Source: a virus
UHGV virus genome: UHGV-0200293
Direction: 5' to 3' (one strand)
Length of the DNA stretch: 24,650 nucleotides
Shown piece by piece: positions 3,810 to 21,302 of this stretch (positions are counted from its first letter, which is position 1; each line of letters starts with the position of its first letter). Position numbers and translations under genes: made by a program. The notes beneath the pieces are model-generated. The model saw only the letters and a list, made by a program, of their open reading frames with translations. It made no database searches and was not told the DNA's origin.

Positions 3810-4016
3810 CTATTCGCCGTAAACGCACATGAACTGAAGTCGGAAGACCAATCGTCCCTCTTCAGTCAGGAGTGGTGCTGGCATATTCCCGAGGTTTTGA
3901 ATCAGGCCAAGGCACTCATCGGCAATGTCGTTCTGTTCGACATAATTGATGATTTCCTATGCCTTTTCTGCTGCTGGGCGACGATTACGTACTCGTTCGT
4001 ACATTGGAGGAGTCAT
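3810..4016 (-). pseudogene. Small 68-codon late-operon ORF interrupted by an in-frame TAG at codon 20 (3957-3959)
   Basis: The ATG at 4016 overlaps the upstream stop as ATGA. Translation is MTPPMYERVRNRRPAAEKA-TAG-EIINYVEQNDIADECLGLIQNLGNMPAPLLTEEGRLVFRLQFMCVYGE. It was missed by the ORF track. Confidence 0.5.
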
Positions 4017-4381
4017 AACGACATTTCCTTGGCGATTGCAGCGTCTATCTGTCGCCGGGTTTCTTCGAAACCTTTAGTAAGAAATTCTTTCTTGGCCGTT
4101 GCCCGGCGGAAGTTCTGCGGTACATTCGGATCATGGACATAAACGGCGTAGTTAGCAGTGTATCCAACGCGCCCAGTAACACGATTTCCGTTCACCGTAA
4201 TCTCTCTGAATTGGCTGTTTATGAGGGTTGAAGTATCAATTGGTGTATACAGAGCCGCCTGCGTTCCGCCTATAATCAAAGCAGATTGCATAGCACGAAC
4301 GACTTTTCTCCCCTGTATATCACCAACAATAGTGTTCAGGTGCCTCTTCGCCTAGTTGACGCCCTTCACTTTGATGCCCAT
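4013..4381 (-). pseudogene. HK97 gp10-family head-tail protein with an in-frame TAG at codon 10 (4352-4354)
   Basis: SD GGAGAAAAA precedes the ATG at 4381. Translation is MGIKVKGVN-TAG-AKRHLNTIVGDIQGRKVVRAMQSAL...YTPIDTSTLINS...YANYAVYVHD, the typical gp10-family pattern. The ORF track shows only the 92-aa 3' part. Confidence 0.7.
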
Positions 4382-4394
4382 TTTTTCTCCAGGC

Positions 4395-4420
4395 AATAAA
4401 AAAGGCCGCCTTAGCGACCT
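4395..4420 (-). terminator. Rho-independent terminator after the 57-aa moron
   Basis: The minus strand reads AGGTCGC-taag-GCGGCCT-TTTTTTATTG. It is near-identical to the module at 8531-8575. Confidence 0.75.
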
Positions 4421-4437
4421 TATCTGAATGCGTTGTG

Positions 4438-4611
4438 CTACTTATACATGATGCTGATTTCTTTTGAATCCTCTGACTCTTTCCATTCCAACTGAATGAG
4501 AAGAGACGGATCATTACGAATTAGCTCTGCAATTTCATTAAGCTTATCCGCAACAACTCCCGCTGACTCTGGAGTGAAATTACCAGTGTTGTAACCGCTG
4601 ACTTCAGACAT
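4438..4611 (-). CDS. Hypothetical 57-aa moron protein (MSEVSGYNTGNFTPESAGVVADKLNEIAELIRNDPSLLIQLEWKESEDSKEISIMYK)
   Basis: It has a strong SD (GAGAGGA), sits in an AT-rich segment, and has its own terminator directly downstream. It is below the ORF-track size cutoff. Confidence 0.55.
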   Translation of the reverse strand: MSEVSGYNTGNFTPESAGVVADKLNEIAELIRNDPSLLIQLEWKESEDSKEISIMYK

Positions 4612-4657
4612 AAATTCCTCTCAACGCGTGGGTTTAGAAGACTCTATCATACTCCCG

Positions 4658-4999
4658 TCAGGATGGCGTAATCATCCGCCAGGCGTTCGAACGTGTCGGC
4701 GTAGCGGATATAACCTGGCGCACCTCGTCGGCACCGGCCACAACCGGGTCTGCTTCAGTCGAAACCCCAATCAGCAGGTAATCACCAGCGGCCGCCAGCG
4801 CAAACTCCGTCCAGACGGTATTCTTCACGACGATTTCAGCGCCCAGGCTGGCTAGCTTCTTGCTGAGTCCGCCCTCGTAATCACAGATGATTTGCTCAGG
4901 TTCGGCATAGCCTAGCGGGTCGCCGTATTCGTCATTGCCTTCCAGTTTGCGCCAGATGGTCGCCGTGGCGGTATAGCTCCACGAAGCAATGCTCGACAT
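4658..4999 (-). CDS. Head-tail joining / head-closure-like protein (113 aa)
   Basis: The start at MSSIASW has SD GGAAGGAGGG and a TGATG overlap with the upstream ORF. Assignment rests on its position in the head-tail module and is weak. Confidence 0.55.
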   Translation of the reverse strand: MSSIASWSYTATATIWRKLEGNDEYGDPLGYAEPEQIICDYEGGLSKKLASLGAEIVVKNTVWTEFALAAAGDYLLIGVSTEADPVVAGADEVRQVISATPTRSNAWRMITPS

Positions 5000-5172
5000 C
5001 AGCCCTCCTTCCAGCGCAGCACCTTCGCGCCGGTCGCCCGGATGCGCGGGCAGTTGATGAACCACTCGCCATCCGATTTCACGTGGCCAGTCGTCTCCCG
5101 CCCGGTGTCGGTCATCACCCAGACGCGGGTGAAAGAGCGCGGCAGCCCGTGCTTAACTGATTTGTACGTCAT
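4999..5172 (-). CDS. Small 57-aa head-tail module protein (MTYKSVKHGLPRSFTRVWVMTDTGRETTGHVKSDGEWFINCPRIRATGAKVLRWKEG)
   Basis: It is coupled at both ends by TGATG overlaps at 5172 and 4999. It was missed by the ORF track. Confidence 0.55.
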   Translation of the reverse strand: MTYKSVKHGLPRSFTRVWVMTDTGRETTGHVKSDGEWFINCPRIRATGAKVLRWKEG

Positions 5173-5552
5173 CAGCAGCCTCCGACCACCATGAACAGGC
5201 CGACGCTGCTCCCGGCGCTGATTGGCAGGTCGCCGGTGCAGCCGCTGGTATCGAGTTTCGCCAGTGAGTCGCGCAGCCAGTTGATGCTGTCGTCGCCATA
5301 TTCAAACGAGCGGGACGCGCCAGACGGAGCGCCCTGCGATTTGATGCGACGCGCGCCGGACGACGTAGCCATCAATGCGGCGGCGTACATCAGGATCAGC
5401 TTCGCGGTGCACTCGTCATACCCCGCGCCATCGAGGCATGGGATAATCTTGTTCACTACGCAGAGGATCGGCTCCAGCAGCGAGCCCGGAATGGAGTAAC
5501 CCAATTCACCGGGGAACGCCTGCACGTCTGCCGCTGTGATTGGGTCAGCCAT
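5172..5552 (-). CDS. Head-tail connector/adaptor-like protein (126 aa, DUF4054-like by eye)
   Basis: It lies downstream of the capsid gene. The N-terminal MADPITAADVQAFPGEL... resembles gp6/DUF4054-type connectors. Confidence 0.5.
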   Translation of the reverse strand: MADPITAADVQAFPGELGYSIPGSLLEPILCVVNKIIPCLDGAGYDECTAKLILMYAAALMATSSGARRIKSQGAPSGASRSFEYGDDSINWLRDSLAKLDTSGCTGDLPISAGSSVGLFMVVGGC

Positions 5553-5554
5553 GG

Positions 5555-19772: not shown

Positions 19773-19913
19773 AACAGAACTCCGTAAATTTTATCGGAGC
19801 GGCCACACCTTCGCATAGCCGCCTGAACGGGAGCTCTGAATAGATTATTTTTCTCATTCTATTAATATGACATTAAAATATTCTGGACTAAAAAATAGCC
19901 TCATCGGGTTAGT

Positions 19914-20114
19914 TTACGGACGTGGATGCATCTTTCTCCATCGCTTCCAGAAACCATATTCTTGCCTAATATTGCTCTCGCAAGTAAGCCTTCCATACTT
20001 CGTTGTCGGTGGGTTAGCTATGATGCTCTCCAGCGATTCTCCAGCATCAAGGCGAGCATAAATTATGTAATCAGCCGCATTCGGATTTTTTGGCTCTGCC
20101 TTTCCAACACTCAT
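19914..20114 (-). CDS. Hypothetical 66-aa protein with a possible HTH (..ARLDAGESLESIIANPP..)
   Basis: The ATG at 20114 is preceded by a perfect AGGAGG. The gene is AT-rich and divergent from the lipoprotein gene. Confidence 0.5.
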   Translation of the reverse strand: MSVGKAEPKNPNAADYIIYARLDAGESLESIIANPPTTKYGRLTCESNIRQEYGFWKRWRKMHPRP

Positions 20115-20290
20115 GAATCCTCCTGACACTCAATGATACGTGCTCTCTGATGTTATGGAGAGCACATCAGCGTAAACAAATATTATTAGGCCACGGTCTC
20201 TTTCAATACTAGGGCCTCGTCGAACGGCTGCGGCACAGCATTACCGCAGCGGGAAACCCTGCGTGGTAGATTTCGTGCAGTTGAAACATT

Positions 20291-20317
20291 AGTAATGAAG
20301 TCTGTCACTTCATTACT
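20291..20317. other. Perfect 11-bp-stem hairpin (AGTAATGAAGT-ctgtc-ACTTCATTACT). A third AGTAATG copy lies at 20324-20330.
   Basis: Read directly from the sequence. There is no T-run, so it is not a classical terminator. Confidence 0.5.
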
Positions 20318-20365
20318 GAAGAAGTAATGTAACTATCATATTTTAAATATCTGAAAATAACTATA

Positions 20366-20385
20366 CAATTCAATAAATTGAATTG
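20366..20385. promoter_or_regulatory. Perfect 9-bp inverted repeat, an operator-like site 20 nt upstream of the lipoprotein start
   Basis: Sequence is CAATTCAAT-aa-ATTGAATTG. Confidence 0.45.
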
Positions 20386-20405
20386 CAGCATGACGGGAAA
20401 CATAT

Positions 20406-20810
20406 ATGATAAAATTTTTAATGTTGATTGTGGTGACATTAACCATTGCAGGTTGCTCCCCTCTTGCACCTACAGGCTGTCAGAAAAAAAACGCAATGGA
20501 ATCATGCGAATATAAGAGTTCAGGTAAAGTGTCGGATAAGGATATATATGGATGGTACTCATCCAGAATAAAAAAAGCTTTGGACGCAGCACTTACAGAG
20601 CCCCATGCCTGGAATGGTAAAAGATGTGACGCTCATCTGGATTTCAAAGTCGATGGCACCCTGCAAAATTTTATCGTGAAAGGTGGTGACAAAGATTATT
20701 GCGCTGCATTGCAAAAAGCTTCTGAAAGAGCGACATTCCCGGCGTTTACCGATCGGAGAGTTTACTTTAATATGGGTTCCGCAAGATGGAACTTCGAAGG
20801 TCAGCCATGA
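20406..20810 (+). CDS. Lipoprotein with a TolA C-terminal (domain III)-like domain
   Basis: The signal peptide has a lipobox LTIAGC. The C-terminal part, GKRCDAHLDFKVDGTLQNFIVKGGDKDYCAALQKASERATFPAF...VYFNM....NF, aligns by eye with E. coli TolA GKTCTLRIKLAPDGMLLDIKPEGGDPALCQAALAAAKLAKIPKPP..VYEVF....DF. Both Cys residues are included. Confidence 0.75.
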   Translation: MIKFLMLIVVTLTIAGCSPLAPTGCQKKNAMESCEYKSSGKVSDKDIYGWYSSRIKKALDAALTEPHAWNGKRCDAHLDFKVDGTLQNFIVKGGDKDYCAALQKASERATFPAFTDRRVYFNMGSARWNFEGQP

Positions 20811-20961
20811 AAACTATGGTGCGCCGGGAGATCCCCGGCGTTCTCAACCTGAGAAAAAACCATTTTCACTTCTGCTGGTCAAACAGCTTCCTCAACATCC
20901 ACCAGCAGCAGGTTTTCCAGCTCTATAATCCGATTGGTGGTGTATTGCAGAAGTTGATCCA

Positions 20962-21302
20962 TCATGCCTCCTGCTGCGGTGCTGCTGGCAGTGGCATCCA
21001 GTGAGTTGGCTTGCAATAAACACCACCACCATTCGGAAGTGATGCAAACCTAAACCATCCATCTGTTTCATTGTGCTCAATGTATCCGACCATCTACTCT
21101 TTCTTATCAGCGCAGTAAACCTGAACATCAACATCGCGATCCGGCATCCGCTCGCTTACCGGAATCCATCTGCCTGGCAACTTGTAAGCGTCACTTACAG
21201 GTTCATCGTTCTGAGCATCACGCAGAGCACAAAAGACTTTATTACGCAATTCGTTGAACTCGTCAGAGCGAATAACCCTGCGCCAGTCCAGCGCATGAGC
21301 GT
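20962..21302 (-). pseudogene. DUF551-like early-region gene remnant. It has no start codon and an in-frame TAG at 21094-21096.
   Basis: Translation is ...DEFNELRNKVFCALRDAQNDEPVSDAYKLPGRWIPVSERMPDRDVDVQVYCADKKE-TAG-MVGYIEHNETDGWFRFASLPNGGGVYCKPTHWMPLPAAPQQEA. The W.PVSERxP ... THWMPLP pattern is typical of DUF551. It is invisible to the ORF track. Confidence 0.6.

Follow-up and report, generated by a model that had tools for sequence, protein, structure and literature searches.

The window analysed here is the whole 24,650-nucleotide stretch of the virus genome UHGV-0200293. It contains an apparent prophage remnant of Citrobacter koseri, in which five genes are interrupted by an in-frame amber (TAG) codon. 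The phage block runs from its gtrABC end, which is flanked by purB in sister loci, to its integrase end next to the host gene phoP. PhoP (23621-24295), the integrase (22264-23550) and GtrC (1214-2914) have exact protein matches deposited as C. koseri. As relatives, we compared 80 loci fetched via the large terminase, sister C. koseri loci and phage records. The window sequence is real, because an independent metagenome-assembled contig is 100% identical to it across 21,476 bases and an exact 101-residue fragment of its Q antiterminator is present on 53 contigs. More than 50 independent assemblies and metagenomes contain this natural chromosome segment, which belongs to a widespread C. koseri clone. 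An assembly artefact was considered and rejected on the same evidence. The remnant was found in none of the species-representative genomes searched, where the top terminase match reached 97%.

Four virion genes, all on the minus strand, carry lesions. The gp10-like or tail-completion (Neck1) gene (4013-4381, 122 codons) starts with ATG(4381) GGC ATC AAA GTG AAG GGC GTC AAC TAG, after which the frame is open to 4013. The TAG at codon 10 (4352-4354) derives from CAG: the site encodes Gln in 30 of 46 homologues, with CAG in the closest relatives. The ancestral context, aaC-CAG-Gcg, is a Dcm site. A phrog_5 match of the protein spans the TAG, and this match, together with the NCBI names of 86-88% identical proteins, is the basis of the label "HK97 gp10 family". 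The protein has no Pfam match, and no NCBIfam match was obtained for the gp10-like, phrog_797 or capsid proteins.

An ATGA overlap (4016-4013) couples the gp10-like gene to a tail-terminator remnant (3810-4016, 68 codons) that ends at its own stop (3810-3812). Codon 20 of this remnant (3957-3959) is changed from CAG to TAG, outside Dcm sites, and homologues mostly have CAG there. Alignment with the close, 127-residue homologue of locus L089 reveals the loss of 59 internal codons (177 nt, in frame), and the Pfam PF23842 match is confined to profile positions 70-125 of 125. A megablast search of E. coli genomes with the gp10/terminator region gave partial matches at 90-92% that left the TAG sites undecided.

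The head-tail gene (phrog_797; 4650-4999, 116 codons) carries a 2-nt insertion (TA) at 4708-4709, which puts its last 20 codons out of frame. The insertion is seen in the DNA alignment with L086, L087, L088 and L090 and in two-frame high-scoring segment pairs to 19 homologues. In the major capsid gene (5773-6852), a TGG-to-TAG change at codon 337 (5842-5844) cuts the protein from 359 to 336 residues. The frame beyond the TAG still encodes the remaining 22 C-terminal residues, GAAGLMVKQDINGHFSVVFASS. A homologue from C. koseri (P0082, 98.6% identity) has 359 residues, Trp occupies the position in 37 of 40 homologues, and the ancestral context aCC-TGG is a Dcm site. The capsid amber, the opal codon described below and the indels were found by blastx against relatives, filtered to the best-scoring frame.

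The lysis, regulatory and early genes, also on the minus strand, are affected as well. The holin gene (15758-16030, 90 codons) has a premature TAA at codon 53 (15872-15874), where L014 (90% identity) has CAG; once the protein is restored, phrog_1350 is matched over positions 1-96 of 97. The Q antiterminator gene (16580-17263, 227 codons) consists of 101 codons, a TAG at codon 102 (16958-16960) and 125 more codons in the same frame. The site is TGG in 8 of 8 homologues, its ancestral context gCC-TGG is a Dcm site, and the Pfam Phage_antiter_Q profile is matched across the TAG (positions 1-218 of 220). Directly downstream of Q, an Rfam isrJ match (16488-16564, minus strand; 55.5 bits, gathering score 37) lies where the leader transcript of a lambdoid late promoter would be expected. 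This suggests that isrJ-type small RNAs are late-leader RNAs of Q-type prophages.

The 3' part of an Ead/Ea22-like DUF551 gene (20962-21270) reads ...YCADKKE-TAG-MVGYIEHNETDGW...THWMPLP. The TAG (21094-21096), outside Dcm sites, replaces the Q of a conserved KEQMVG motif, which homologues encode by CAG three times and by CAA once; Pfam DUF551 is matched across it (positions 2-68 of 68). The gene appears 5'-truncated, because the frame has no ATG and is still open where it reaches a deletion junction near 21270, and because in phage homologues the DUF551 domain forms the C-terminus of longer Ead/Ea22-like proteins. The homologues were obtained by protein-level tblastn. DNA searches of a phage collection gave at most 86% identity over 27% of the window and, for the DUF551 region, only short conserved blocks that left out the TAG. 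A small gene (phrog_16025; 20816-20977), which overlaps the end of DUF551, carries a TGG-to-TGA (opal) change at 20879-20881, where 3 of 3 homologues (L012, L092, L093) have TGG. Its 3' end is diverged or truncated, and the phrog_16025 match is limited to positions 1-50 of 85. Finally, ninG (17397-17976) has an out-of-frame deletion of ~28 nt at about 17886, which leaves 29 N-terminal codons followed by a 162-codon remainder in another frame. Consistent with this, tblastn of the 195-residue NinG P0105 places residues 2-27 in frame -2 and residues 37-195 in frame -1.

The initial annotation had listed four in-frame TAG codons, in the gp10-family gene, the gene after it, Q and the DUF551-like gene. 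All four are found at the positions it gave and in the frames it described. The ATGA coupling is also there, and the in-frame TAA that it offered as a possible fifth case does interrupt the holin; the capsid TAG, the fifth amber, was absent from it. Its description of the four genes as otherwise intact does not hold for the tail terminator, with its internal deletion, or for the apparently truncated DUF551 gene. Nor is every premature stop amber, given the TAA in the holin and the TGA in the small gene, next to the TA frameshift and the ninG deletion. The annotation had itself named a random mix of lesion types as grounds for regarding four TAGs as a coincidence. The element does carry such a mixture (TAA, TGA, a frameshift, small and large deletions), and the amber-only premise that had set the observation apart is wrong.

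Two further features of the locus mark large deletions. The first is a chimeric open reading frame (2941-3750, minus strand, 269 codons) with a junction at about 3220. In blastp searches, its residues 1-177 are 98.9% identical to the major tail protein of L089 (residues 1-177 of 251), and residues 178-269 are 96.7% identical to the C-terminus of the 672-residue tailspike of L101 (residues 581-672). The public name of this frame, "DNA breaking-rejoining protein", is misleading, since it is an in-frame fusion of major tail and tailspike. In the intact relatives L087-L091, the major tail gene is followed by chaperone, tape-measure and tail-tip genes, which are gone in the window. The second feature is a 3' fragment of recT (21268-21705, plus strand) comprising about the last 144 codons. 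Compared by blastp with the 369-residue RecT of L084, a prophage at the same site, it has high identity only from residue 226 onward. The same-site prophages L082-L085 carry recE, full recT, helix-turn-helix repressors and the replication gene O, none of which is present in the window. Comparison with these relatives indicates the loss of the tail module and of the immunity/replication/recE region in two large deletions.

The lesions of the element amount to five TAG, one TAA and one TGA codon, a +2 frameshift, the ninG deletion and the 177-nt in-frame deletion. The locus has the characteristics by which cryptic prophages are recognised: an integrase borders one end of a phage-derived block inserted between host genes, modules essential for the lytic cycle are lost, and there are several independent types of pseudogenising lesion. 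We regard the element as a non-viable, defective lambdoid/siphovirus prophage remnant, which, to judge from the missing genes, would be unable to be induced or to form particles.

One possibility raised in the initial annotation is a suppressor-dependent, conditional prophage. Such a prophage would function only with a host or helper amber-suppressor tRNA that reads TAG as Gln or Trp, and it would account for five premature TAGs in an element where TAG is the rarest natural stop (2 of 36), for the intact coupling signals around the gp10-like gene, and for Q, gp10-like and capsid proteins that, with read-through, would be complete members of their families. Suppression could not, however, rescue an element from which the tail and immunity/replication modules are gone: tail assembly, tape-measure, tail-tip, repressor/cro and replication genes are all missing. 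The TAA, the TGA, the +2 frameshift and the two intragenic deletions are equally beyond a suppressor's reach. The ancestral residues are a mixture of Gln and Trp; no single suppressor restores the wild type. The only tRNA genes in 17 related or flanking loci are tRNA-Thr and tRNA-Met, and there are none in the window. The TAGs are, in addition, of different ages in different lineages, as described below. We consider suppressor dependence highly improbable.

The sister lineages carry nested subsets of the lesions. The TAGs of gp10, Q and DUF551, the holin TAA, the small-gene TGA and the ninG deletion are common to L086 and L098. L099 and L100 cover only window positions 6-13750, where the gp10 TAG is the one visible lesion of this shared group. 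The capsid TAG and the TA frameshift are present in L098-L100 and absent in L086, which retains TGG at the capsid codon. The tail-terminator TAG occurs only in the window clone, with CAG in L086, L098, L099 and L100. The stops are thus polymorphic, one confined to the window clone and the others shared, which settles the question of fixed or polymorphic codons that the initial annotation had put to sister isolates. Because the subsets are nested, the lesions appear to have been acquired one after another, at no fewer than three different times, which fits stepwise decay. Further losses have occurred in two of the sisters: L086 lacks window 8490-15544, and L098 lacks a block that extends from the Rz-like lysis gene (PF03245) to within the capsid gene. 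The complete genome L086 (CP052059.1) also differs from the window by many gaps of 2-11 nt and a run of N in otherwise identical sequence. These gaps are possibly assembly errors, and small indels of L086 were excluded as evidence.

The same comparison bears on programmed amber read-through, in which the TAGs would tune late-gene dosage, as in TAG-recoded phages or proteins extended past a leaky stop. Q and the virion genes with TAGs do belong to the class that stop-codon recoding affects in other phages; no result supports the idea directly. Among ~100 homologous loci, no homologue has TAG at any of the five amber positions, which are occupied by sense codons (CAG, CAA, GAG, TGG and similar). 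The tail-terminator TAG is specific to one clone and absent from its nearest sisters, which differ by only ~11 substitutions in 10.8 kb. The 3' contexts of the five codons differ (TAG-G, TAG-G, TAG-G, TAG-T and TAG-A), two genes of the element use TAG as their genuine stop, and the window encodes no suppressor tRNA. Programmed read-through, also raised in the initial annotation, is on these grounds extremely unlikely.

Between the window and L099/L100 we count 11 substitutions across ~10.8 kb of phage DNA (2973-13750), and 11 of 11 are transitions. When recent transitions are polarised with outgroups, about half are G:C to A:T and half A:T to G:C. A one-sided transition spectrum is what mismatch-repair-deficient episodes produce, and a mutator background is plausible. 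All seven nonsense changes of the element are G:C to A:T, a class that makes up 23% of the possible single-base nonsense targets. It is conceivable that a single burst of hypermutation made all of them, through a mutagen, a deaminase acting as toxin or editor, or a mismatch-repair-deficient episode; the transition-dominated recent substitutions would fit the last of these. The nesting of the lesions among lineages, with its several acquisition times, speaks against one event, and indels are also present. Both strands were hit, with coding-strand C-to-T changes in gp10-like, tail terminator, DUF551 and holin and G-to-A changes in Q, capsid and the small gene. The 5' neighbours of the mutated cytosine vary (C, A, G) and form no single deaminase motif other than CCWGG, and the A:T-to-G:C half of the polarised transitions are not deaminase products. 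A deaminase signature in strand or motif was rejected for the same reasons, and a single burst of any kind seems unlikely to us.

The five premature TAGs look striking because both CTAG and natural TAG stops are rare in the window. The natural stops of 36 genes are TAA in 19, TGA in 15 and TAG in 2, and CTAG occurs at 18 sites where base composition predicts about 96; three of the 18 are the ambers at Dcm sites. To compare the amber count with chance, single-base routes to a stop were counted over the 5,825 codons of the remnant with ancestral codons restored. Restriction of this count to transitions is justified by the 11 transitions among the 11 recent sister substitutions. The G:C-to-A:T nonsense targets number 488, of which 280 lead to TAG, 144 to TGA and 64 to TAA; 57% are amber because CAG and TGG are common. 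On this basis the probability of four TAGs in four stops is 0.11, and that of at least five in seven is 0.36. The amber excess above chance is not significant.

Three of the five ambers (gp10-like, capsid and Q) fall on the inner cytosine of CCWGG. Dcm sites hold 30 of the 488 targets (6.1%), all of which yield TAG, and were hit in three of the seven nonsense events (binomial P = 0.0067, from a small sample of seven). Relative to their share of targets, they are about sevenfold over-represented among the lesions. According to the summary of Coulondre et al. 1978 in PMC12606429, the second C of CCAGG is where spontaneous lacI amber hotspots lie; these require Dcm methylation and are over-represented roughly tenfold. 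If Dcm sites are weighted tenfold, they should receive about 40% of the nonsense hits, close to the three of seven observed. C. koseri encodes a full-length Dcm, 84% identical to that of E. coli, and the accession numbering range, taken by itself, suggests that one Dcm variant comes from the same assemblies as the remnant. We infer that Dcm is active in the window strain and that deamination, not replication error, lies behind the three ambers at Dcm sites.

The changes seen here resemble the lacI hotspots as PMC12606429 summarises them: G:C-to-A:T transitions at the second C of CCAGG or CCTGG that create CTAG and an in-frame TAG. The lacI mutations come from a selected lacI- collection, whereas those of the window, with deamination as their presumed cause, lie in natural prophage pseudogenes. 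The remnant thus offers a natural illustration, in prophage pseudogenes, of the amber-hotspot rule of 1978.

In our interpretation, the premature stops reflect neutral pseudogene decay of a defective C. koseri prophage remnant in the purB-phoP interval, a reading to which we assign a probability of roughly 0.87. On this account, the tail module and the immunity/replication/recE region went first, in two large deletions, and the genes that survived then gathered nonsense and indel lesions in succession, every nonsense change being a G:C-to-A:T transition from CAG or TGG. Where such a codon lies in CCWGG, Dcm would methylate the inner C to 5-methylcytosine, and its deamination to thymine would turn CCAGG or CCTGG into CTAGG or CCTAG. 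An in-frame change of this kind can create only TAG, and would in this way add to the amber share. The TAGs are explained by known biology, and neither a suppressor nor programmed read-through is needed.

Among the explanations listed in the initial annotation, recent decay by CAG- or TGG-to-TAG transitions with a flavour of deamination is the one that our data bear out: the lesions are nested, three of five ambers are at Dcm sites, and the ancestral codons are of the expected kind. The alignment to homologues that it had suggested gives CAG for the gp10-like, tail-terminator and DUF551 genes and TGG for Q.

Several observations weigh against neutral decay with a Dcm contribution. Four of the nonsense lesions (the ambers of the tail terminator and DUF551, the TAA and the TGA) are outside Dcm sites, so that the hotspot accounts for the pattern only in part. 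Of the 11 lineage-specific substitutions, none is at CCWGG, though only ~0.5 would be expected there. The holin change from CAG to TAA needs two transitions, or a CAA ancestor that was unobserved. For DUF551, the ancestral codon is taken from homologues of only 43-51% identity. In addition, some large genes, those of the terminase, the portal and a 398-residue DUF2213 protein, have remained open, perhaps a sign of some selection; we roughly estimate that a single hit in ~35% of the codons is nothing unusual.

Selection might also have favoured inactivation. In such a domestication, nonsense in Q and holin would have disarmed lethal late functions after the loss of immunity. Q and holin, which pose the greatest danger to the host, are indeed both knocked out, by lesions that are among the oldest and shared ones, and gtrABC and the integrase are still intact. 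Most of the genes hit (tail completion, tail terminator, capsid, DUF551 and the small gene) are, however, harmless on their own. Among five window-specific substitutions there is one nonsense change, where 2.8% would be expected per transition; by our own estimate this gives P ~0.13, compatible with neutrality. Selection for inactivation also leaves the amber preference unexplained, and it would add to the mutational account without taking its place. As an explanation of the premature stops it is very unlikely, while the lesions of Q and holin may owe part of their spread to selection for disarming these two genes.

A more far-reaching version of the methylation account is doubtful. Here, Dcm would act as a systematic "amber fuse" on incoming phage DNA or, in a weaker variant, the clone would tolerate or partly suppress UAG. 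If the fuse existed, new prophages would bring in many unpurged C-CAG-G and CC-TGG sites in frame, which 5-methylcytosine deamination would preferentially turn into TAG. Dcm would then measurably speed the inactivation of prophages in enterobacteria and bias its outcome.

The remnant can be compared with other elements that carry premature stops. Enterobacteria harbour cryptic or defective prophages undergoing mutational decay, such as Rac, DLP12, e14 and Qin of E. coli K-12. Like these, the remnant has lost modules by deletion, contains point and indel pseudogenes and keeps cargo (here gtrABC) along with an integrase, and it likewise has differently eroded sister versions at one attachment site. 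It differs in phage lineage and host, and in an unusually high share of nonsense lesions (seven, compared with three small indels). With TAG-to-Gln recoded phages it has in common the in-frame TAGs in structural and late regulatory genes. In contrast to those phages, it is non-viable, lacks a suppressor tRNA in the window and the 17 loci, has Trp codons replaced as well, and its TAGs are unconserved and polymorphic within the species. Laboratory amber-mutant phages such as lambda Sam7 and the Wam Eam Sam vectors also combine several ambers in essential late genes. The remnant differs from them as a natural segment with non-amber lesions, module deletions and no vector or marker sequence. It is a cautionary example of how a run of premature stops of the same type can mimic recoding or suppressor dependence; here the run can be traced to codon usage, a mutation spectrum dominated by transitions and a well-known hotspot at a methylation site.

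At the distal end of the remnant lies the O-antigen glucosylation operon of gtrA (partial), gtrB and gtrC (5-2914, plus strand; open reading frames at 271-1227 and 1214-2914), with all three genes intact. Pfam Glycos_transf_2 and GtrA are matched by the orthologous genes of the operon in the sister loci. About 60 of the ~87 substitutions that separate the window from its nearest sisters fall in positions 1-1000 (gtrA/gtrB), compared with ~25 in the next 12 kb. The clustering suggests that this part of the glucosylation operon is a recombination patch. At the other end, the intact integrase gene (22264-23550, plus strand, 428 residues) adjoins phoP.

Two regions of the remnant may represent cargo. 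An intact gene for a 134-residue lipoprotein-like protein with a TolA-type Pfam match (20406-20810, plus strand) stands on the opposite strand among the decayed early genes and may be retained cargo (a moron). Between the small terminase gene and the Rz-like lysis gene, ~850 bases (13958-14812) have no long open reading frame on the phage strand. At the equivalent place, the relative L091 has a gene for 213 residues on the opposite strand, and the window segment may be another decayed cargo gene.

The contents of the purB-phoP interval vary by strain in C. koseri (loci L082-L085, L086 and L098-L104). Some strains have full prophages with recET and replication genes, others the present remnant in several versions that are eroded further, and others minimal remnants that consist of gtrABC, a tailspike gene, xis and a truncated integrase gene. 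To judge from this gene content, the interval is an integration hotspot with a visible erosion series, in which the step-by-step erosion of one prophage is documented across C. koseri lineages.

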